From a virus (lineage: Duplodnaviria; Heunggongvirae; Uroviricota; Caudoviricetes), in IMG/VR virus record IMGVR_UViG_2602041669_000008: 31,073 nucleotides of DNA. One strand, written 5' to 3'. The notes under the pieces are model-generated. The model saw nothing but the letters and a program-made list of their open reading frames with translations, had not been told where the DNA came from and ran no database searches. Shown here piece after piece: positions 3,405-24,459 of this stretch. The translations under genes and the position numbers were made by a program. Each line of letters begins with the position of its first letter. Positions within the stretch are counted from its first letter, which is position 1.

Positions 3405-3430
3405 AAAAAAAAGGCGGCCTAATGGCCGCC
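3405..3430 (-). terminator. Strong intrinsic terminator on the minus strand ending 6 nt before the ref ATG
   Basis: Plus strand reads A8-GGCGGCC-TAAT-GGCCGCC, so the minus-strand RNA is a perfect 7-bp stem followed by U8. Confidence 0.7.
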
Positions 3431-3514: not shown

Positions 3515-3580
3515 GGTAGATATTTTATTTATCGCGAATCACATTTTTTCACTTCAGTACCTGTGTGCTATACTCCTTCT

Positions 3581-3650
3581 TGATTGATTGGATGCGGAAT
3601 ACAAACCCGCTCTTTTGTGCAGCCTGGCTCCTTGCCAGGCTTTTTTATTT
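3581..3650 (+). ncRNA. Candidate small RNA (about 70 nt): extended -10 promoter, 5' motif UGAUUGAUUGG, intrinsic terminator
   Basis: TGcTATACT at 3566-3574; motif at 3581-3591; stem GCCTGGC/GCCAGGC (3622-3640) followed by TTTTTTATTT; no plus-strand ORF. Confidence 0.35.
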
Positions 3651-4006: not shown

Positions 4007-5038
4007 CTAGTTGCCATCTTCCAGCAGGCGCACCATTGCCCCCGTTTCACTATCCAGGTTACGAATGTAGTTCATGACAATATTTACGTTGGTCCAGCCA
4101 CCAGCTTGCATGATCTCCGGTATTGAAACTCCGGCGCGGGCCATATCTCGCGCGGCACCGACACGGGCACTATGTCCAGACCAGGCCAGGTATCGCTGAC
4201 CAGAGTCATCTTTTGCCCCGTAAATCAATCGGTGAGTTGCTTCAAAAATCCCTTCCAGGGCGCGAGTTGATAGCTGGCTGGTGGATGATGGCGCGGCAAC
4301 ACCATTTTTTCTGACGCGGCAAAACAGGTAGTTATTCGGATCATCAGCTACACCAGAGACAGAAATCCATCGCTCAACCAGTTTAGTTACCCCCAGGCTA
4401 AGTGCCTTCTCTACACCAGCGGTGCTAACCAGCGTTTTCGTTCTGCCAATATGGATTAACATTCTCCCACCGTCAGTACGTGAGATATCTTTAACCCTGA
4501 TCCTAGAAATTTCGGCTATACGTAACAGGGTGTTATAAGCAATCCCCAGAAATGCCAGATTACGTATATCCTGGCAGCGATCGCTATTTTCCATGAGTGA
4601 ACGAACCTGGTCGAAATCAGTGCGTTCGAACGCCAGCGCCTGTTTTGCACGCTCACCGGCATCAACGTTTTCTTTTCGGATCCGTCGCATGACCAGTGAA
4701 ACAGCATTGCTGTCACTTGGTCGTGGCAGCCCGGACCGACGATGAAGCATGTTTAGCTGGCCCAAATGTTGTTGGATAGTTTTTACTGCCAGACCACGCG
4801 CCTGAAGATATAGAAGGTAATCGCGAACATCTTCAGGTTCTGCGGGAAACCATTTCCGGTTATTCAACTTGCACCATGCCGCCCACGACCGGCAAACGGA
4901 CAGAAGCATTTTCCAGGTATGATCAGAAAACGCCTGGCGATCCCTGAACATGTCCATCAGGTTCTTGCGAACCTCATCACTCGTTGCATCGACCGGCAAT
5001 GCAGGCAAATTTTGGTGAACGGTTAACGAATTAGTCAT
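4007..5038 (-). CDS. cre: Cre site-specific tyrosine recombinase (343 aa)
   Basis: Translation is near-identical to canonical P1 Cre as I remember it; differences noticed: N-terminus MTNSL instead of MSNLL, E39D, two A-to-S changes, C-terminal D-to-N; loxP lies about 820 bp upstream. Confidence 0.97.
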   Translation of the reverse strand: MTNSLTVHQNLPALPVDATSDEVRKNLMDMFRDRQAFSDHTWKMLLSVCRSWAAWCKLNNRKWFPAEPEDVRDYLLYLQARGLAVKTIQQHLGQLNMLHRRSGLPRPSDSNAVSLVMRRIRKENVDAGERAKQALAFERTDFDQVRSLMENSDRCQDIRNLAFLGIAYNTLLRIAEISRIRVKDISRTDGGRMLIHIGRTKTLVSTAGVEKALSLGVTKLVERWISVSGVADDPNNYLFCRVRKNGVAAPSSTSQLSTRALEGIFEATHRLIYGAKDDSGQRYLAWSGHSARVGAARDMARAGVSIPEIMQAGGWTNVNIVMNYIRNLDSETGAMVRLLEDGN

Positions 5039-5430
5039 TTATTATGCGTGATTTTAACAGTTAAGCCTTGTTCATGAAGTATCTCATCAATAATTCGAAT
5101 CACATCCCCTGGTAGATCATCGTTCTCGAAATATCTGTGATCGGGGATTTCTACAGTGATTGGGGTTGCTGCTTTATGCAAAATCCGAACAATCTTTTTT
5201 TCTTTTTTGCATGTTGCATATTCAGCCTCTTCGATATCTATCCAGCTCGCACCATCAAATTGCTGGTAAACCCGAGTGTATAGTAAGCGATTTCGCTTTA
5301 CTTCTTCTGCTAACTCCCAAATTGCAACAGCCATAGCACGTTCATTTTCATTCGTTCCAGGGTTAGCAGCTTTTTGTTTTGCGTCGTTCAGTAAGGCGTT
5401 TACCTTGGCATCTGTCAGGCCATTAAACAT
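5035..5430 (-). CDS. Hypothetical protein (131 aa) translationally coupled to cre
   Basis: Track ORF; GGTGA 3 nt upstream of the ATG; stop TGA overlaps the cre ATG (ATGA); no family recognised. Confidence 0.6.
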   Translation of the reverse strand: MFNGLTDAKVNALLNDAKQKAANPGTNENERAMAVAIWELAEEVKRNRLLYTRVYQQFDGASWIDIEEAEYATCKKEKKIVRILHKAATPITVEIPDHRYFENDDLPGDVIRIIDEILHEQGLTVKITHNK

Positions 5431-5671: not shown

Positions 5672-5768
5672 TTTTCACCTCTGATTGATTGGTGGTGCTA
5701 AGTGCGCTACGCGAAATCTGGAGCACTAACACTGCCAACATTTCGCAGATTTTACGTAGCGCAACCTT

Positions 5769-7479: not shown

Positions 7480-8598
7480 TTATTCAGCCGCCACCGGTTT
7501 TAACAAGCCAGCATCGAGCAGTTTACGCGTCAACCACTGCTGGCCTTTACCCGTTAATTGGGGCGTCAGCCGTATCTGGTAGCCATTTTCATCATCCAGC
7601 ACCACTTCTTTCACCGTGAAATACCCCGCGTTGATGTACTGCTGGAACGGCACATTTTTACGTCCACCGGACGCTATCAGGATGCCGTTCTCCCGTAACC
7701 AGACAAACAGCGCGTTTTGCTTAAGTCCAACAACCTTTGCAAAATTCCCAATCAGGATCCCTTTAGCTACTGATACCCGGTCGGCAAAATCGACTTTAGG
7801 AGCGGCGGCCACCAGCTGCTGATTTAGCTGGTGGGCTTTCTGTTCCAGAAGTTGCTTTTGTTCAGCCAGTTCGGCAGCCAGGCGTAGGGCTTCAGGAAGC
7901 GTCTGGGGGATTGCGATCGGTTGCTGTTCTTTTTGTCGGAAGTAGCTGTCTTCCAGTTTTTCAAAGAATGCCCATGCCTGATCGGTTTCGAGCATTTTAG
8001 CGTGGCGGGCTGCGCCGCGTTCTGTCCAGAGGGTGAGTGAGCGAACATTGCGAGCAATTTTTACAGAGTAGTTTAAAGCTACTCTGTGCTTCAACTCGCG
8101 CAATGATTCTCCTTCAACTTTGAAAAAGTGCTTCCCTTCAACAAAGCGTACTTTGTTCTCATGATGATTTTGGCGAATACGGATTGTTTCTGTCCCATAC
8201 CCTCTAGCAAGAGTCTCGGTTGTCACTACACGCACTCCCTGCCATTCCAGAACGGGAATTTCATCAGACTGATTCTGAACAACCACCAGCTCCGATTCCT
8301 GAACTGAAGGTGCATGAATTTTTTCTAATTTAACGTTATTTGCTTTCATTCTGTGTGCCTCCTTGCGTGCTTCGGCTGCGACGGTTGCGTAATTCAGATG
8401 ACCCTGTTCGAGCAGGTATTCACGGATATCAGACAACAGGATACGGTGAACCGCGTTCTTGTCCTTTCTCCGGTAAAGTTGTTTGGTGATCATGAAGTAG
8501 TTGGCAATAACGCCTGGTATATCCCTGGTACTGATACAGGCAGTGTGCTGTTCAATTGCCTCGATAATCTCTTCACGGGTGACTAATGACGTTCTCAT
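7480..8598 (-). CDS. ant: Antirepressor (372 aa; Bro-N/Rha-like N-terminal region, KilAC-type C-terminal domain)
   Basis: Track ORF; C-terminal motif ...VAKGILIGNFAKVVGLKQNALFVWLRENGIL...; start overlaps the icd-like stop (ATGA). Confidence 0.8.
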   Translation of the reverse strand: MRTSLVTREEIIEAIEQHTACISTRDIPGVIANYFMITKQLYRRKDKNAVHRILLSDIREYLLEQGHLNYATVAAEARKEAHRMKANNVKLEKIHAPSVQESELVVVQNQSDEIPVLEWQGVRVVTTETLARGYGTETIRIRQNHHENKVRFVEGKHFFKVEGESLRELKHRVALNYSVKIARNVRSLTLWTERGAARHAKMLETDQAWAFFEKLEDSYFRQKEQQPIAIPQTLPEALRLAAELAEQKQLLEQKAHQLNQQLVAAAPKVDFADRVSVAKGILIGNFAKVVGLKQNALFVWLRENGILIASGGRKNVPFQQYINAGYFTVKEVVLDDENGYQIRLTPQLTGKGQQWLTRKLLDAGLLKPVAAE

Positions 8599-8789
8599 AG
8601 TCCCTCCTGAGCAGAAGCGTTAACAGGGAGGCACCAGTAACTGAGAGAATTGCGTGAATCAGTGGAAAAACGGGCAGAGAAAATACATGGGGCGTCAGGA
8701 AGCTGAGAGCGGGCCTCATCTTCTGTTGGTGCAATAACGAAGTGATAGTGACGTTTTTGGCAGGAGTAAAAGCGCCAGATAAATTCAGG
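7588..8789. repeat. Direct repeat copy B (matches 1-1196)
   Basis: See copy A; divergent patch at about 8047-8225, inside ant. Confidence 0.85.
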
Positions 8790-8816
8790 ATGAGTTGGGG
8801 TAGGGATAGTAGCCAT
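8595..8816 (-). CDS. icd: Icd-like small protein (73 aa), translationally coupled to ant
   Basis: ATG 8814-8816 with AGGAGG 8 nt upstream, in frame with track ORF 8595-9044; MATIPTPTHPEFIWRFYSCQ... Confidence 0.5.
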   Translation of the reverse strand: MATIPTPTHPEFIWRFYSCQKRHYHFVIAPTEDEARSQLPDAPCIFSARFSTDSRNSLSYWCLPVNASAQEGL

Positions 8817-8981
8817 ATTGGCAGCCTCCTTAGACGTTGGTATGTAACCACCGCAGAAGAGACCAATCTTGCTGGCGGTGGACTGTACGGAGTTGGCCTT
8901 ACTGGCGTCCAAGGTAACCAGCCTACCCGAAGGTAGCCCCATACAGCCCACCATTGTAGAGGTGTGCGTGTACGCCGATAC

Positions 8982-9125
8982 AAAAAAAAGACGCGAGCGG
9001 CGTCTGTATCGCCTTAGACTTAAGCGGGAGGCCAATCCCGGCACCCGTTTTAATGAGGTGCCTGATAAGCATAAACCGAAAATGCCTCAAGGCGCAAGAG
9101 GTCAGGCTCAATGTAACATCGGTAG
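8982..9125 (-). ncRNA. Candidate c4-like structured leader/antisense RNA upstream of icd-like copy B
   Basis: Begins just below the operator at 9136-9152; hairpins GGCACC/GGUGCC and CGGGA/UCCCG; ends in stem AGACGC/GCGUCU plus U8 (8982-9005); no ORF. Confidence 0.35.
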
Positions 9126-9135
9126 TTAAAAAACA

Positions 9136-9152
9136 CAATTTATTAGAGCAAA
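9136..9152 (-). promoter_or_regulatory. C1 operator-like site (TTTGCTCTAATAAATTG, 15/17) heading the icd-like/ant unit
   Basis: Direct read; lies immediately after the pacB stop. Confidence 0.6.
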
Positions 9153-19368: not shown

Positions 19369-19857
19369 CTACTCACCTCCGTTGATGCGAATGCCTGTTG
19401 CAATGCTGTTTATGATGCTGTCAGTGCATGGGGTAGAAAGCTGGGCATCTCCAGCAATTTTCATGACATCAACATCTGCATATCGAATACCGAGGTGTAT
19501 CAGACCGGCTATACCTGACTTAAGCCGAGCATTTTCCATAAACAGATCCTTTGCCCGCTGTTTTTCTGCCTCAAGCTCAACGCGCAGCTTCCCTACCGTT
19601 AGCGCAATTTCCTCGTTCTCCTGGTCGCGGGATTTGATGTATTGCTGGTTCCTTTCCCGTTCATCCAGTAGTGCCAGCACGGTTTCTGGTCCGGCCAGAA
19701 ATTTGAAGGCGTTGAGCGCATCAATATCCACACCGTAATCTTTAAGTTCCTGTTCACTTAACAAATCATCATCAGCTGGCAACATTAACAGGCGTTCCAT
19801 TGCTGGAATTGCACGTTCCGCCGCCTCACGCAGTGCCTGGTAATTAATTTCGCTCAC
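19369..19857 (-). CDS. Ead/Ea22-like protein (162 aa)
   Basis: N-terminus MSEINYQALREAAERA typical of the lambdoid Ea22-like family; start overlaps the upstream stop. Confidence 0.65.
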   Translation of the reverse strand: MSEINYQALREAAERAIPAMERLLMLPADDDLLSEQELKDYGVDIDALNAFKFLAGPETVLALLDERERNQQYIKSRDQENEEIALTVGKLRVELEAEKQRAKDLFMENARLKSGIAGLIHLGIRYADVDVMKIAGDAQLSTPCTDSIINSIATGIRINGGE

Positions 19858-20630
19858 TGGTTGCCTCCTTTGCGAAGCTGGGCAGCAAAGTCAACTAACC
19901 ACTCAGTCATTTCAACCTTCCCTACCAGATCTGAACCAGGGTGCATACAGCAATCACTCTGCGCCGCTTTGAAATCCTTATACTCATATTCTTGGGCCAC
20001 CAGATTTTTTGCAGCTTCTATAGCAGCATCCAATCCCTGCGCCCGCACTTCAGCCAGGCATTTGCGAAACTCGGAAACGTACTGTTCGACGCTCATTCCC
20101 CAGCTAAGTGGACATTCATTGAATGTTTCGCCTTCGTGCTCTTCATCAGGTAGCTCTTTGGTAAAGAACTCACGCTCAATGGCGTGGAGTGTGTCAGCAA
20201 AACGACGTAAGTTACTCAAACCTACCGTAATGGAGAATTCAGGAGCATCACATCCGACGCCCATCTGCTGATAAACGGCGGTTTTGAAGGCCTTAAGCCC
20301 CGCATTCTCCGCCACCAGCGCCGCGAGATTAGTCTCAAGCTCTGCAATTCGACACATAGCATCAATATTTGTGTCCTCCAGGCACTTAATTTCACCAAGC
20401 AGCTCCAGTGCAACCTTTGGGTTGAACGCGGCAACATGACGAGCGTTGTTCTCTGCATTTTTCTGTCCATCAAAGCCGGTCCATTTGATAACGTCTTCAC
20501 ATCGTTCATCACCGGGCGTGTGCACCGCATAAGTACCAGTATCCGTCGAAATAAATGCGACCCATTCGTCTGGTGTTGCCTTTTCTGCCGCCTCACGCAG
20601 TACCTGATAGTTAATTGTCATTCTCGCCAT
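19854..20630 (-). CDS. Ead/Ea22-like protein paralog (258 aa)
   Basis: N-terminus MARMTINYQVLREAAEKA, same family signature. Confidence 0.65.
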   Translation of the reverse strand: MARMTINYQVLREAAEKATPDEWVAFISTDTGTYAVHTPGDERCEDVIKWTGFDGQKNAENNARHVAAFNPKVALELLGEIKCLEDTNIDAMCRIAELETNLAALVAENAGLKAFKTAVYQQMGVGCDAPEFSITVGLSNLRRFADTLHAIEREFFTKELPDEEHEGETFNECPLSWGMSVEQYVSEFRKCLAEVRAQGLDAAIEAAKNLVAQEYEYKDFKAAQSDCCMHPGSDLVGKVEMTEWLVDFAAQLRKGGNQ

Positions 20631-21262
20631 CCTTCACAGTTGTAATCACTACAGCCTTCAAAATCATATGGGCTGTACTGCCAGGTTATTTTTCCGCAAT
20701 GCGGACAATTCCAACGCACCTTCCCGCTTCGCGACTTCTTTCTTCTGTTCTGCTCTTCCAACCAGTCAGGCATGACCAAACCTGCGCCCTGAACCATTGT
20801 TCTGCGGTTAAAGTTATTGATATTGAACGTCCGACGCTTTGCTGCATCAGCAATGGAAAATGGCAACCAAACTATTCCTGGTTCGTTTTTGTTGGCGACG
20901 CTAAAGATGGTCGCTTTACTGAAGTCATCTGTTGGCAATCCACCGTGTTGAAGCCAGTAAACATCGTTGCCGTTCCAGCTACCTTTTTTGTAGGCCACAT
21001 ACGCAGTGCAATCTGACTCAATCAGGCTTTCTGTAGGGATGTACTGGCAATCAACGTGCCACACAGCCATTGCATCCACACTATCGGCACAAACAGGCTG
21101 ATCGATATCTCGCCCACAATTCCAGGCTTTTTGGGCTTCTTCCAGCGTGTAAACATGAGCGCGATCGATATCAGAACTGTAACCATTGCCGTTATGGCAA
21201 TGGAATGAGGCGTTATTACCCACAGTTTCACGCAAGCACATCATGTAAAAACGGTTACTCAC
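20618..21262 (-). CDS. Hypothetical Cys-rich protein (214 aa)
   Basis: Track ORF; GTG start with GGGAGG 6 nt upstream. Confidence 0.55.
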   Translation of the reverse strand: MSNRFYMMCLRETVGNNASFHCHNGNGYSSDIDRAHVYTLEEAQKAWNCGRDIDQPVCADSVDAMAVWHVDCQYIPTESLIESDCTAYVAYKKGSWNGNDVYWLQHGGLPTDDFSKATIFSVANKNEPGIVWLPFSIADAAKRRTFNINNFNRRTMVQGAGLVMPDWLEEQNRRKKSRSGKVRWNCPHCGKITWQYSPYDFEGCSDYNCEGWRE

Positions 21263-21470
21263 TGGATGCCTCCCAGCAAATTTGTCTTATATAAGAACTG
21301 TTAACGCGCTTTACTTTCCCGTCGAACTCCAGTTTCTTTAGACGACGCAAAACGTATGCCGTTTTGAGTGTGCGATATTTATCCCTAAGCCAGTTGGTCA
21401 CGACGTAAGTCATACAGCGCCCGTGTTCTTCCAACACCCGAACTATTTCTTCGTCGGTTGGCTTGCTCAT
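21255..21470 (-). CDS. Small basic protein (71 aa)
   Basis: Track ORF in a tightly packed operon. Confidence 0.5.
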   Translation of the reverse strand: MSKPTDEEIVRVLEEHGRCMTYVVTNWLRDKYRTLKTAYVLRRLKKLEFDGKVKRVNSSYIRQICWEASSE

Positions 21471-21688
21471 TTTGTCGCTCCTTCAGCTTTCTCTACTTTC
21501 GCTGCCATGATTTCCAGCTTTTGTGCTGCCGATGCCGCTAACCTGTGAAATTCTTCATCTGTTTCAACTGGAATTGGTACAAACCTGACACCAATTTGAG
21601 CAAGGCTATGCGCCATTTCGAGACTTGCTCTTAACTCTGCTGGGGATGCTTTATTCAGGCCGACTTCCTCACAAATAACTGATTGCAT
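21467..21688 (-). CDS. Small hypothetical protein (73 aa)
   Basis: Track ORF; start overlaps the upstream stop. Confidence 0.5.
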   Translation of the reverse strand: MQSVICEEVGLNKASPAELRASLEMAHSLAQIGVRFVPIPVETDEEFHRLAASAAQKLEIMAAKVEKAEGATK

Positions 21689-21697
21689 ACGCTCGCC

Positions 21698-22423
21698 CTA
21701 CTGAATACGCTCAAACTCGATTACCCAAACCCAGGGATTAGCACTCCAGCTTTCTTCGCCGTAGATGGATTCCCACAGGCGCTGGAACGCAACCTTGGCC
21801 ATTGCGAAATCCCCCTTGGGAGTAAGGAATGTTCCCGGGTGATCAGGAAGCAAACTTCCAGCAGGCGGAACGCCCTCATCCCTTGCATCGCATTCGCTGA
21901 TATCGTTCAACCGCTCAACGCGCACGTTGGTAATTTCCAACAGGATGCGTGATGCCCATCGCGGCATGTGAATTGATGGACGCCACCCACCATCAAACTT
22001 TTCATTCACAGTGTGAGGTTTCCAGTCGGCATCATCGGGTATCGACCATAAACCGTAATCACCAGGCTTTTGCTCACAACTGGCCCGATAAATCCTTGCT
22101 GCGTTCTTCTCATCGCCACGACAAAGGTTGTCGTTCCAGTCCACACTGCAACCATCTTCATTGCCTAATATCGCCCATGTTTCACGAACCCAAATTCGAT
22201 CGCCGACGATACCAAAGGGGCAATTGAAAACACTGCTTACACCATCAGCCCCGTACCACTGAAAACCTGCACCAATTTCCCTAACCATCACTGGTGCTTC
22301 TGGACCAACTTCCGCAGGCTGATTTTTCATTATCCGCCGCGCCTGCGTTTTCCTTCCTTCGAGGATGGCTCGGACCATCTCATCGTTGAAAATCATGCCG
22401 CGCTCTTTCACTTCGCCTTTCAT
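21698..22423 (-). CDS. ASCH/PUA-like domain protein (241 aa)
   Basis: N-terminal motif FNDEMVRAILEGRKTQARR resembles the ASCH signature; AGGGGGA upstream of the ATG. Confidence 0.55.
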   Translation of the reverse strand: MKGEVKERGMIFNDEMVRAILEGRKTQARRIMKNQPAEVGPEAPVMVREIGAGFQWYGADGVSSVFNCPFGIVGDRIWVRETWAILGNEDGCSVDWNDNLCRGDEKNAARIYRASCEQKPGDYGLWSIPDDADWKPHTVNEKFDGGWRPSIHMPRWASRILLEITNVRVERLNDISECDARDEGVPPAGSLLPDHPGTFLTPKGDFAMAKVAFQRLWESIYGEESWSANPWVWVIEFERIQ

Positions 22424-22432
22424 GCATCCCCC

Positions 22433-22519
22433 TTACCCATGCGCGACGATGCCGCCAAAAGTGATAGAGAACAGCCAGAAATAGATCGAGGCCATAATGA
22501 TTTTGAATGCCGTGTTCAT
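22433..22519 (-). CDS. Candidate 28-aa hydrophobic peptide (type I toxin-like)
   Basis: MNTAFKIIMASIYFWLFSITFGGIVAHG; AGGAG 8 nt upstream of the ATG, preceded by CCAATCAATCA; stop is 9 nt before the next ATG. Confidence 0.3.
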   Translation of the reverse strand: MNTAFKIIMASIYFWLFSITFGGIVAHG

Positions 22520-22528
22520 ATTTTCAGC

Positions 22529-22578
22529 TCCTGTGATTGATTGGATACATGCCGCGCCTTACGGCATGTTTTTATTTT
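22529..22578 (+). ncRNA. Candidate antisense small RNA overlapping the RBS of the 28-aa peptide gene
   Basis: CATATT -10-like hexamer at 22517-22522; motif TGATTGATTGG at 22534-22544; stem CATGCCG/CGGCATG (22548-22568) followed by TTTTTATTTT; no plus-strand ORF. Confidence 0.3.
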
Positions 22579-22601
22579 CACTTTCTCTGTTTTAAAAATC
22601 A

Positions 22602-22618
22602 AGATTTATTAGAGCAAT
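22602..22618 (-). promoter_or_regulatory. C1 operator-like site (ATTGCTCTAATAAATCT, 16/17)
   Basis: Direct read; overlaps the stop codon of the HAD-like gene. Confidence 0.6.
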
Positions 22619-23124
22619 TATTGTTGATGGAGAAGCGCGTTTTCATACTCCCTGACCATTAACGTAAGTACGCCGTGACTCCTGAAAACACGCGCCACTT
22701 CAATCTTATCTTCCAGCGCGAACGCAATTTTACTTAGACCAATTTTCTTCAGGAGATCAATCTTTGCTGGACCGTCATTTCTGTCATCGGTGGCAGGACG
22801 CATAGATAGCAAAGGCTCCGCCCCATTTGTTACGTGCTTACGCAACCAGGCTCGTGTTTTATCCCTGGCTATCTCACAGCGCCCGGTTACAAACCAGAGG
22901 GTGTAAATGCCGGACAACTGGCGCACCATATCAATAACTGGAGTGATGGGAGCATCAGTGTCACAGGCAAGGTTAAACTCGTTCCAGTGCTCTGTTAATG
23001 CACCTTTGCCAGGTGGTGGAAGTAAATGCAGCCTGTCTTCCGTTGCCTCTGATATCGTCCCATCAATATCTACTATGACGATGTACGGACGTTCCTGGTG
23101 TGCGTGTTTATTGAAAATACTCAA
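22618..23124 (-). CDS. HAD-superfamily phosphatase-like protein (168 aa)
   Basis: Motif IVIVDIDGT (DxDGT); TTG start with GAGGAGG 4 nt upstream. Confidence 0.65.
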   Translation of the reverse strand: MSIFNKHAHQERPYIVIVDIDGTISEATEDRLHLLPPPGKGALTEHWNEFNLACDTDAPITPVIDMVRQLSGIYTLWFVTGRCEIARDKTRAWLRKHVTNGAEPLLSMRPATDDRNDGPAKIDLLKKIGLSKIAFALEDKIEVARVFRSHGVLTLMVREYENALLHQQ

Positions 23125-23143
23125 ATGCCCTCCTCATTGGACG

Positions 23144-23176
23144 AAAAAAATGCTGGTGGGAGCACTCCACCAGCAT
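23144..23176 (-). terminator. Intrinsic terminator on the minus strand between the 420-aa gene and the HAD-like gene
   Basis: 10-bp perfect stem ATGCTGGTGG/CCACCAGCAT followed by U7 on the minus strand, ending just before the HAD RBS. Confidence 0.55.
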
Positions 23177-23196
23177 TAAAAGTGACACTGTAACTA

Positions 23197-24459
23197 TCAG
23201 CGAACGTAAATAGTGCCGCCGTTCTCTTTTTCCCATGCATCGCTACGTGCATAGCAAACATCGAGAAGTCTTCTTGCCGCAGTTTCCTCTAAACCCAATT
23301 CGACAACCAACTGCTCATGACGGCGGGTAACCACATCAAACAGGGTATGCAGCCCTTTAGTTGCCAGATCATCAATGAATTCCGGTTCGAACGGCAGCTC
23401 TGCATCTGCCAACATAACCTCTTGCGCCCACTCAACTCGACGGACCAATTCCGGGCGACGGCTTTCCATCTCTTTACAGATCAATTCATGGAAGAACTCT
23501 ACCCAACCTTCCGGCTGGAACTCGCGGAAAATTGCCAACGGCTGGAAGTTTGGCATCAACCATTCGTTGATTCGGATATCAATGGCATAGCCCATGTCGC
23601 AGCAGAACTGATAAGCAAAGTCCAGCTTAGAAACGATATAAGGACGCTCGTTATTGAACTCTTTAGGCGATGAGATCCCATAAGCCAGGAGGCGCGGGAA
23701 GAAGGAGATTTGCCCTAACGTCGGATGAAGTTTGCTTGCAGGGAAACGGCGCTCAGTAATGCCATACATTTCCTTCTTGAGCGTCGCAAATTTGGCATTC
23801 TCATTAACCAGCGCGGTAACCTCTGCTTTTTTATTAGCAAATGCCACGCGCGCCTCGCTTGCATCTTTAATAGTTTTTTTGAGCTGTTGGTTAAGGTCGG
23901 CGACCTGCTTACGCAGTTCCTGTCGCTCGCTTTTAGCTTTGTTATAGCGTTTCTCAAGGTTAAAAGGATCAAGTTTCATGATCTCTTTATATTGAGATTT
24001 TAGCGTTGAAATCTGTGAGTTCCGCAGTTCAACCATCGCGGTCATTTCATTGAGTTTTGTTTCCAGCTCAATGCTTATACGTTCGGCATTATCAGCACGC
24101 TGGTTGGCGTCATGCGTCGCATCGTCGATCGCGTCCTGTTGCTGGCGTTTCAAATGTTCAATTTCCAGCTGAAGCTCTTCAATTTCTTTACCCTTCAGAC
24201 CGAGATCCAACTGCATATTTTCAGCTGCATCTACCAGGGAGTTATGGCTATCAGCTTCTGCGTTATAAACATCAATAAGCTGTGCGTGAAGCATCTCCGC
24301 TGACTGAACCGCATTATCAAAAAAACGTGCTGTGAGGTCATCACAACTAACGCGGCGTTGCGCGGCCCGGATGTTCTGGATAATGGCCGGGATACCGGCA
24401 TTCAGGACATCAGGGATACATACATTTTCGATTGATTGGTTTTGTGCTGAAGTGCTCAT
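23197..24459 (-). CDS. Hypothetical protein (420 aa; coiled-coil N-terminal half)
   Basis: Track ORF; CCAATCAATC lies within the first 10 codons. Confidence 0.65.
   Translation of the reverse strand: MSTSAQNQSIENVCIPDVLNAGIPAIIQNIRAAQRRVSCDDLTARFFDNAVQSAEMLHAQLIDVYNAEADSHNSLVDAAENMQLDLGLKGKEIEELQLEIEHLKRQQQDAIDDATHDANQRADNAERISIELETKLNEMTAMVELRNSQISTLKSQYKEIMKLDPFNLEKRYNKAKSERQELRKQVADLNQQLKKTIKDASEARVAFANKKAEVTALVNENAKFATLKKEMYGITERRFPASKLHPTLGQISFFPRLLAYGISSPKEFNNERPYIVSKLDFAYQFCCDMGYAIDIRINEWLMPNFQPLAIFREFQPEGWVEFFHELICKEMESRRPELVRRVEWAQEVMLADAELPFEPEFIDDLATKGLHTLFDVVTRRHEQLVVELGLEETAARRLLDVCYARSDAWEKENGGTIYVR

Follow-up and report, generated by a model that had tools for sequence, protein, structure and literature searches.

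A conserved 28-codon hydrophobic reading frame at a cargo boundary of P1-like phage-plasmids, and a candidate trans-encoded small RNA complementary to its leader

The window analyzed here is a 31,073-nt stretch of tailed-phage DNA (Caudoviricetes; IMG/VR record IMGVR_UViG_2602041669_000008), and the element in question is a minus-strand open reading frame (ORF) of 28 codons for a hydrophobic peptide, located between pap and a pmgT-like gene. By sequence match, the window is an exact segment of p95JB1A, a P1-like phage-plasmid of Escherichia coli 95JB1, and the region shares ~98% identity with phage P1 and its relatives. The locus corresponds to the 195-bp pap-pmgT spacer of P1, for which the reference NC_005856 annotates the operator Op88/OpmgT and the predicted promoters P1pmgT and P2pmgT, all three in the direction of pap and pmgT (minus strand of the window), and no coding sequence. 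Other records do name the ORF: it appears as “membrane protein” in the Salmonella phage SJ46 record and as “hypothetical protein” in a few GenBank entries. Of 5,426 complete E. coli genomes, 564 (~10%) carry the full peptide locus. Both pap and pmgT are dispensable for plaque formation (PMC10695390). A literature search for “Op88” returned unrelated papers only, and a P1vir RNA-seq paper contained nothing on the peptide locus. An earlier, sequence-only reading of the window had interpreted the ORF as one half of a type I toxin-antitoxin-like pair, the other half being an antisense RNA that shares an 11-mer with it.

The ORF proposed in that reading is present together with its AGGAG Shine-Dalgarno (SD) sequence, just downstream of Op88 and the PpmgT promoters (coordinates in Table 1). 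Relatives were compared in 78 IMG/VR loci and 72 metagenome loci; species-representative genomes yielded only two near-identical loci, and homologues of Pap with less than 60% identity were located in unrelated phages. Lack of conservation in relatives had been named as one outcome that would refute the proposed pair; the ORF turned out to be conserved, being intact in ~97% of ~140 related loci. It encodes a near-identical peptide with start, frame and stop kept in 75 of 77 IMG/VR loci, the two exceptions being broken by insertion. Every metagenome locus with the P1 upstream context has an intact ORF, and the seven that lack the start codon also lack this context, as does an IS1-truncated relic in IncF plasmids. 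Most loci share the consensus peptide MNTAFKIIMAAIYFWLFSITFGGIVAHG; the window copy has S11. The AGGAG core is unchanged in the 77 scored relatives, as far as the match required it, and the base immediately 5' of it is changed from C to T in one of them.

Diversity within the ORF decreases from the third (0.029) to the first (0.014) and second (0.008) codon positions, and the ratio of nonsynonymous to synonymous diversity (piN/piS) is 0.20 in the ORF frame versus 0.22 to 2.2 in the other five frames. A single clean transmembrane helix is predicted for the peptide (Kyte-Doolittle 19-residue maximum of 1.96). In its size (<60 amino acids), hydrophobicity, predicted helix and SD the ORF is like a type I toxin gene. 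No match was found in Pfam, NCBIfam or PHROGs, and the peptide matches none of the known type I toxin families (Hok/Gef, Ldr, TisB, Ibs, ShoB, Fst and others). Searches by tblastn and with a degenerate DNA pattern recovered relatives only in P1-like loci and in the IncF relic. This relic is an 84-bp fragment of the ORF (matching 22429–22512 of the window) without start codon and promoter, found between a type I hsdR gene and IS1 in ~280 IncF plasmids. Its position between hsdR and IS1 suggests a P1-like element as the source from which IS1 captured the type IC hsd cluster.

Homology among the relatives ends within a few bases past the peptide stop codon. In about two thirds of the loci pmgT or an ASCH-like relative follows, starting 9 nt past the peptide stop, as in the window; in ~30% the neighbor is a convergent type I hsdR that ends ~80 nt from this stop. 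The interval from pmgT to humD constitutes variable region 8, of eight, in P1-like phage-plasmids (PMC9603915). The neighbor that had been called ASCH-like is present in the window; its name comes from the NCBI names of some homologues, and it has no Pfam or NCBIfam match. Homologues of this gene reside in Klebsiella lambdoid prophages, in early-left operons where no such peptide precedes them. Based on the homology break behind the stop codon and on cargo homologues that lack the peptide, we assign the peptide to the P1 backbone and not to the cargo. The cargo itself (19854–22423, minus strand) resembles a lambdoid early-left accessory module with ASCH-like, DUF1382, small winged-helix-like and Ead/Ea22-like genes, and the same gene order is found beside int in Klebsiella prophages.

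On the upstream side, the C1 operator that had been placed beside the ORF is real and corresponds to Op88/OpmgT of P1 (22618–22602, minus strand). It belongs to the ATTAGAGCAAT repeats, of which the window contains 7 and the whole plasmid 12; the P1 annotation gives a 100% operator match in P1, and the flanks are 97.8–98.7% identical. The locus thus shows the arrangement of a C1-controlled early operon, a 17-bp operator overlapping a promoter at the pap-pmgT position of the P1 map. Mapping of P1pmgT puts the predicted transcription start site (TSS) at ~22567–22569, which are the first bases of a GC-rich hairpin. Its 8-bp stem (arms 22547–22554 and 22562–22569) includes CATGCCG/CGGCATG and is followed by TTTTTATTTT at 22570–22579, as described in the sequence-only reading, and our scan likewise flags a terminator-like site on the plus strand, one of 3 such sites against 2.0 expected, a number that is not unusual. 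The predicted fold of the sense strand consists of a 5'-terminal 9-bp hairpin followed by unpaired AUCCAAUCAAUCA-C-AGGAG.

Diversity is 0.003 in the stem versus 0.057 in the loop, which tolerates a 2-nt insertion, and reaches 0.049 in the operator-promoter spacer, ~15 times the stem value. A near-invariant stem with a variable loop, beside a far more variable spacer, therefore points to a selected structure. The plus-strand terminator had been regarded as an orphan with no gene to terminate, which holds for this window but not for the hsdR-class relatives; in one of these (L008) the hairpin is the only terminator-like site downstream of hsdR. The “orphan” terminator thus has simpler explanations, namely the complement of the -10 region, a 5' mRNA hairpin and hsdR termination in relatives. 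In the simplest reading one hairpin would serve two roles, as the 5' end of the operon mRNA, where it would probably stabilize the transcript, and as an insulator or terminator against cargo-side transcription.

The 11-mer TGATTGATTGG next to the peptide SD, at 22534–22544, was confirmed by reading the sequence. Only three exact copies exist in the 86.9-kb plasmid and only three in P1. All three are intergenic, lie on the gene-sense strand and abut an SD-like sequence, at the 28-aa ORF, at cra and at the c8-ref site, and they are kept exactly in 73 of 77, 78 of 78 and 78 of 80 relatives, respectively. The cra copy precedes the SD of an ORF starting at ~5660; a 131-aa ORF at 5035–5430 (minus strand) between cra and cre is absent from P1 and explains a gap in the P1 alignment. 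The three copies are not significant as such, for 126 other 11-mers in the plasmid, with unrelated flanks, reach three copies or more. As judged from the sequences compared here, the count is unremarkable and the placement remarkable, and the non-random signal of the locus lies in conservation and placement, not in motif counts. Pairing of the 11-mer with the 3' end of 16S rRNA was rejected on comparison by eye. Literature searches for the motif and for a P1 small RNA at the c8-ref site gave nothing relevant. A copy with one mismatch, CCAATCAATCG in gene sense, is located at 24429–24439 (plus strand), where it coincides with codons 7–10 of the minus-strand gene pmgS, beginning 20 nt past the start codon of that gene; P1 has this copy too, and it may be due to chance.

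At the c8-ref site, the opposite strand of the 11-mer copy starts exactly where the transcript of a promoter scoring 9/12 would start, and a terminator follows ~40 nt later. Promoter and terminator, strong conservation and a textbook predicted fold lead us to think that a plus-strand small RNA (sRNA) of ~68 nt is encoded at ~3581–3650, ~19 kb from the peptide gene. Its predicted layout comprises a single-stranded 5' seed UGAUUGAUUGGAU, a small stem-loop, a U-rich linker, a terminator hairpin (3621–3641) and a U-run. The gene is convergent with c8, and its terminator overlaps the c8 stop codon. Over 80 loci, the 9-nt extended -10 element is invariant (diversity 0.000), and diversity is 0.004 in the seed and 0.006 in the terminator, compared with 0.034 in the adjacent c8 coding sequence, 0.10 in the ref operator and 0.136 in the upstream spacer; in one relative everything upstream of the extended -10 is replaced and the rest is kept. 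The sequence features of an Hfq-type trans-acting sRNA are hence all found here: an own promoter, a single-stranded seed, a U-tailed Rho-independent terminator and conservation above that of the flanks. The candidate has no Rfam family and is not annotated in P1, and no Rfam family was found at the peptide-leader RNA candidate either. Missing from the P1 reference annotation are thus both the ORF and the candidate sRNA. In the leader of ref, between its predicted promoters and start codon, lies another strong terminator-like hairpin (3413–3430, minus strand; GGCGGCC...GGCCGCC followed by T8), which is probably the attenuator that work of the 1980s proposed for ref.

Perfect complementarity to the 5' end of the candidate sRNA extends over 13 nt by the peptide SD in the window, over 12 nt there in P1 and over 11 nt by the cra SD. 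This suggests that a trans-acting sRNA most likely contacts the 11–13-nt sequence 5' of the peptide SD. That the sRNA is expressed and pairs with the peptide and cra targets is a tentative proposal, which we regard with slightly more doubt than confidence.

Table 1 Features of the peptide locus and of the candidate sRNA locus (window coordinates)
Feature	Position	Strand	Remark
28-aa ORF MNTAFKIIMASIYFWLFSITFGGIVAHG, predicted single-pass membrane peptide	22433–22519	minus	reading of the sequence
Shine-Dalgarno sequence AGGAG	22528–22532	minus	8 nt ahead of ATG
AUCCAAUCAAUCA, directly 5' of the SD, predicted single-stranded	22534–22546	minus	complementary to 5' end of the candidate sRNA at 3581
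Conserved GC-rich hairpin, 8–9 bp	22547–22569	both	minus: predicted 5' end of peptide mRNA; plus: stem of intrinsic-terminator-like site
T-run TTTTTATTTT of plus-strand terminator, complement of the A-rich -10/discriminator tract of P1pmgT	22570–22579	both	
P1pmgT, predicted sigma-70 promoter	-35 TTGATT 22602–22597, -10 GAAAAT 22579–22574	minus	NC_005856 annotation mapped by identity
P2pmgT, predicted sigma-70 promoter	-35 TTGCTC 22617–22612, -10 TAAAAC 22594–22589	minus	NC_005856 annotation mapped by identity
Whole predicted promoter region of the operon	22574–22617	minus	
C1 operator Op88/OpmgT ATTGCTCTAATAAATCT	22602–22618	minus	P1 annotation mapped onto the window; overlaps pap stop codon
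pmgT-like/ASCH-like gene, 241 aa, first gene of swappable cargo	21698–22423	minus	starts 9 nt after peptide stop
Candidate sRNA promoter: TTTTCA, 17-nt spacer, TATACT, extended -10 TG (TGcTATACT)	3546–3574	plus	score 9/12
Candidate sRNA, ~68 nt, c8-ref interval	3581–3650	plus	promoter, terminator, fold, conservation
Third exact 11-mer copy, directly 5' of cra SD (GAGGTG), upstream of cre	5682–5692	minus	exact in 78/78 loci

A locally encoded antisense RNA was the remaining part of the sequence-only reading, in which a transcript from the hexamer CATATT would cover the SD and start codon of the peptide gene. This geometry fails: CATATT occupies 22517–22522 and begins with the complement of the start codon, so that an RNA starting ~7 nt downstream (~22529) is not antisense to the start codon and would reach at most part of the SD complement at 22528–22532. 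As a promoter the hexamer scores 6/12. No plus-strand promoter above 7/12 was found between 22300 and 22535, the best combination lacking an extended -10, and a standard scan of 21500–23500 yielded no plus-strand promoter. As far as sequence can tell, there is no credible local promoter from which an antisense RNA would be made, and the 11-mer, which does look like an antisense contact site, loses its proposed cis-encoded partner; the better antisense candidate appears to be the trans-encoded one at 3581–3650.

We consider it very improbable that the locus is a cis-encoded type I pair, in which a short plus-strand RNA from CATATT/TATTTT would carry the 11-mer, end at the hairpin and T-run and repress a toxic peptide via its ribosome-binding region. 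Such a pair would be in line with the conserved hydrophobic ORF and its low synonymous diversity, which fits an overlapping function. The plus strand also folds into a free 11-mer followed by a good terminator hairpin (z = -2.55), TATTTT at 22519–22524 has the key -10 bases A2 and T6, and the plus-strand module (13-mer, 8-bp hairpin, TTTTTATTT) resembles a shortened copy of the candidate sRNA at 3581. Apart from the low promoter scores, however, the -10 would overlap the start codon and leave the RNA unable to cover it, the next gene begins 9 nt past the ORF, and a C1-repressed peptide promoter would provide little toxin mRNA to neutralize in lysogens. Post-segregational killing of the hok/sok kind was judged unlikely, because the peptide promoter overlaps the C1 operator and is expected to remain off in the carrier state. 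Moreover, the mRNA does not appear to be inert as made: its predicted leader is ~50 nt long, with SD and 13-mer unpaired in minimum free energy and centroid folds. The lack of a toxin family match, an SD predicted to be accessible and the position as first cistron of an operon in most relatives argue against a classical type I toxin. Cis-antisense RNA, family homology and, by prediction, a sequestered SD are each lacking, and the locus is not established as a member of the type I toxin-antitoxin class. The sequence-only reading was thus partly right, namely on the conserved hydrophobic gene and on the 11-mer as a likely antisense contact, and wrong on the local antisense RNA and the orphan terminator.

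A plus-strand regulatory RNA could also do without a promoter of its own, as the processed 3' end of cargo-side transcripts, for instance from the 3' untranslated region (UTR) of hsdR, with the same seed as the c8-ref sRNA and antisense to the peptide gene over its full length. sRNAs derived from 3' UTRs usually carry their seed immediately ahead of a terminator, convergent hsdR genes end close to the peptide stop with the hairpin as the only terminator-like site downstream, and the junction of hsdR and ORF is kept even in the IncF plasmids, as the IS1-truncated relic. We nevertheless rate this possibility as distinctly unlikely: the window and P1 have no plus-strand gene for ~7 kb, the element is equally conserved in both cargo classes, and a processing site cannot be shown.

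The account that we favor, and consider moderately probable as a whole, combines a backbone peptide gene, a C1-repressed Op88/PpmgT unit, a two-role hairpin and a contact site for a trans-acting sRNA. The 28-aa ORF would accordingly be a genuine small gene specific to the P1 lineage, translated and inserted into the membrane, and operator, promoter, 5' hairpin, ribosome-binding region and peptide would form a constant “expression platform” at the cargo edge. The peptide ORF would be the promoter-proximal cistron of the C1-repressed early transcription unit, with C1 at Op88 keeping the operon promoter off in a lysogen. Since its promoter shows no C1 operator, the sRNA is probably constitutive and made in lysogens, where it would pair beside the SD of leaky or read-through peptide mRNA and block initiation, and would act likewise on cra mRNA. 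Induction or infection would lift C1 control, upon which the hairpin-capped, stable mRNA would be translated to yield a small inner-membrane peptide and then the downstream cargo. On the plus strand, hairpin and T-run would stop transcription from the cargo side, which could come from hsdR in about a third of the relatives and has no obvious source in this window.

Several observations weigh against this account. For the ORF, the test on nonsynonymous and synonymous changes (dN/dS) is weak when events are counted (9 nonsynonymous versus 6 synonymous, p = 0.088), and its third-position diversity of 0.029 is three times below that of pap (0.090), which suggests an additional constraint at the nucleotide level, outside the favored model. 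The triple 11-mer is not rare in itself, given the 126 others in the plasmid. Two stem variants of the hairpin carry one G-U-compatible change per strand (1:1), so that the functional strand is not indicated. On the side of the sRNA, seed and targets are near-invariant and offer no covariation; a 4-nt slippage deletion that shortens the target in 3 loci has no counterpart in the sRNA encoded on those contigs, though 9 bp could still pair; and RNAduplex, run with the sRNA 5' end against the plasmid, is not discriminative, as further sites reach a similar energy. For these last three reasons we infer, rather than conclude, a link between sRNA and peptide.

Some of the same observations would suit an ORF without peptide function, either a leader or coupling ORF for the cargo gene or a fortuitous one, in which conservation stems from RNA or DNA constraints and the 11-mers represent a shared translation-initiation or enhancer cassette, or chance. 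The non-significant dN/dS, the unusually low synonymous diversity and the abundance of other repeated 11-mers are all compatible with it, as is the lack of homologues outside the P1 lineage in tblastn and DNA pattern searches. Its stop codon, 9 nt from the next start, overlaps the SD of the next gene, and the ribosome-binding regions of cra and of the peptide also share a GAAAA(T)ATG spacer. Yet ORF, SD and promoter are intact in the ~30% of relatives of the hsdR class, where no same-strand gene follows, which argues for more than a coupling leader. Together with a piN/piS that is lowest in the ORF frame, codon positions ordered as in coding sequence, a clean predicted transmembrane helix and an 11-mer copy that sits, on the opposite strand, exactly at +1 of an invariant extended -10 promoter, this makes an ORF without peptide function unlikely in our view.

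Returning to the backbone peptide gene and its sRNA contact site, a bolder version may be envisaged, which we regard as speculative and rather doubtful. Here, a toxic early-lytic peptide would be under a double lock in the manner of tisB/istR-1, with C1 acting on its promoter and the sRNA (seed UGAUUGAUUGG) on its ribosome-binding site; the sRNA would also pair upstream of the cra(-cre) SD, and a promoter-less second copy of the module, on the opposite strand of the leader, would be released from convergent transcripts such as the hsdR 3' UTR.

P1 is a classic model and tool (Cre-lox, transduction), and P1-like phage-plasmids also carry resistance and defense cargo. The fixed peptide module is located directly before one of their eight variable cargo regions (PMC9603915) and probably sets cargo expression and insulation. 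A real sRNA would give P1 a second antisense regulator in addition to C4, with cra, upstream of cre, and perhaps cre itself as a further target.

Two C4 copies were identified in the window with Rfam. They are part of two immI-like modules (C4 RNA, icd-like and antirepressor genes) at 1–1480 and 7480–9150, which flank c1-cre-c8-ref. Rfam matches in these modules lie at 1271–1356, 1425–1477, 8871–8958 and 8984–9061 (minus strand), one module being matched by an isrK-like RNA and the other by c4-a1b1. The stretches 1–300 and 7588–7887 are 100% identical. A third icd/ant module is present in the full plasmid, and P1 itself has one.

Among known systems, the C4 antisense RNA of P1 is processed from the icd-ant (immI) operon under its own control. 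The candidate sRNA belongs to the same phage and would similarly be a small constitutive RNA that silences a lytic function in lysogens by short complementary blocks near a ribosome-binding site. C4 forms its own Rfam family; the candidate matches none, differs in sequence and is equipped with a promoter and a terminator of its own. Integron attI leader ORFs (ORF-11 and ORF-17) are short ORFs that drive translation of swapped cassettes, and the peptide ORF shares with them a constant position at the boundary of an exchangeable array and a stop codon next to the first cargo start; it differs in being hydrophobic, constrained in its amino acids and retained even with convergent cargo. The GC-rich hairpin at the predicted +1, the reverse strand of which forms a stem and T-run, is reminiscent of ompA-type 5' stem-loops and of bidirectional insulator terminators, the TSS here being a predicted one and stabilization and termination putative.

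With hok/sok the locus has in common a plasmid- or prophage-borne location, a small hydrophobic ORF and a hairpin-rich leader. It deviates from hok/sok by the absence of an overlapping antisense promoter and of a Hok/Gef, Ldr, Fst or similar domain, and by a peptide promoter that is repressed in the carrier state. In tisB/istR-1 of E. coli, as in dinQ/agrB, the promoter is repressed by LexA, and a separate sRNA binds a short segment of the 5' UTR, at a standby site further upstream. There are three parallels to tisB/istR-1: a peptide of ~28 amino acids with one (here predicted) transmembrane helix, a promoter held off by a repressor (C1 in place of LexA) and a separately transcribed, non-overlapping sRNA, which is a candidate here. 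Sequence homology is lacking, however, and the candidate sRNA lies 19 kb away instead of adjacent. Pairing would involve only 11–13 nt right at the SD, the leader is short (~50 nt) with an open SD, and the ORF heads an operon in most relatives. If the locus is toxin-antitoxin-like at all, it would thus resemble tisB/istR-1 rather than hok/sok.

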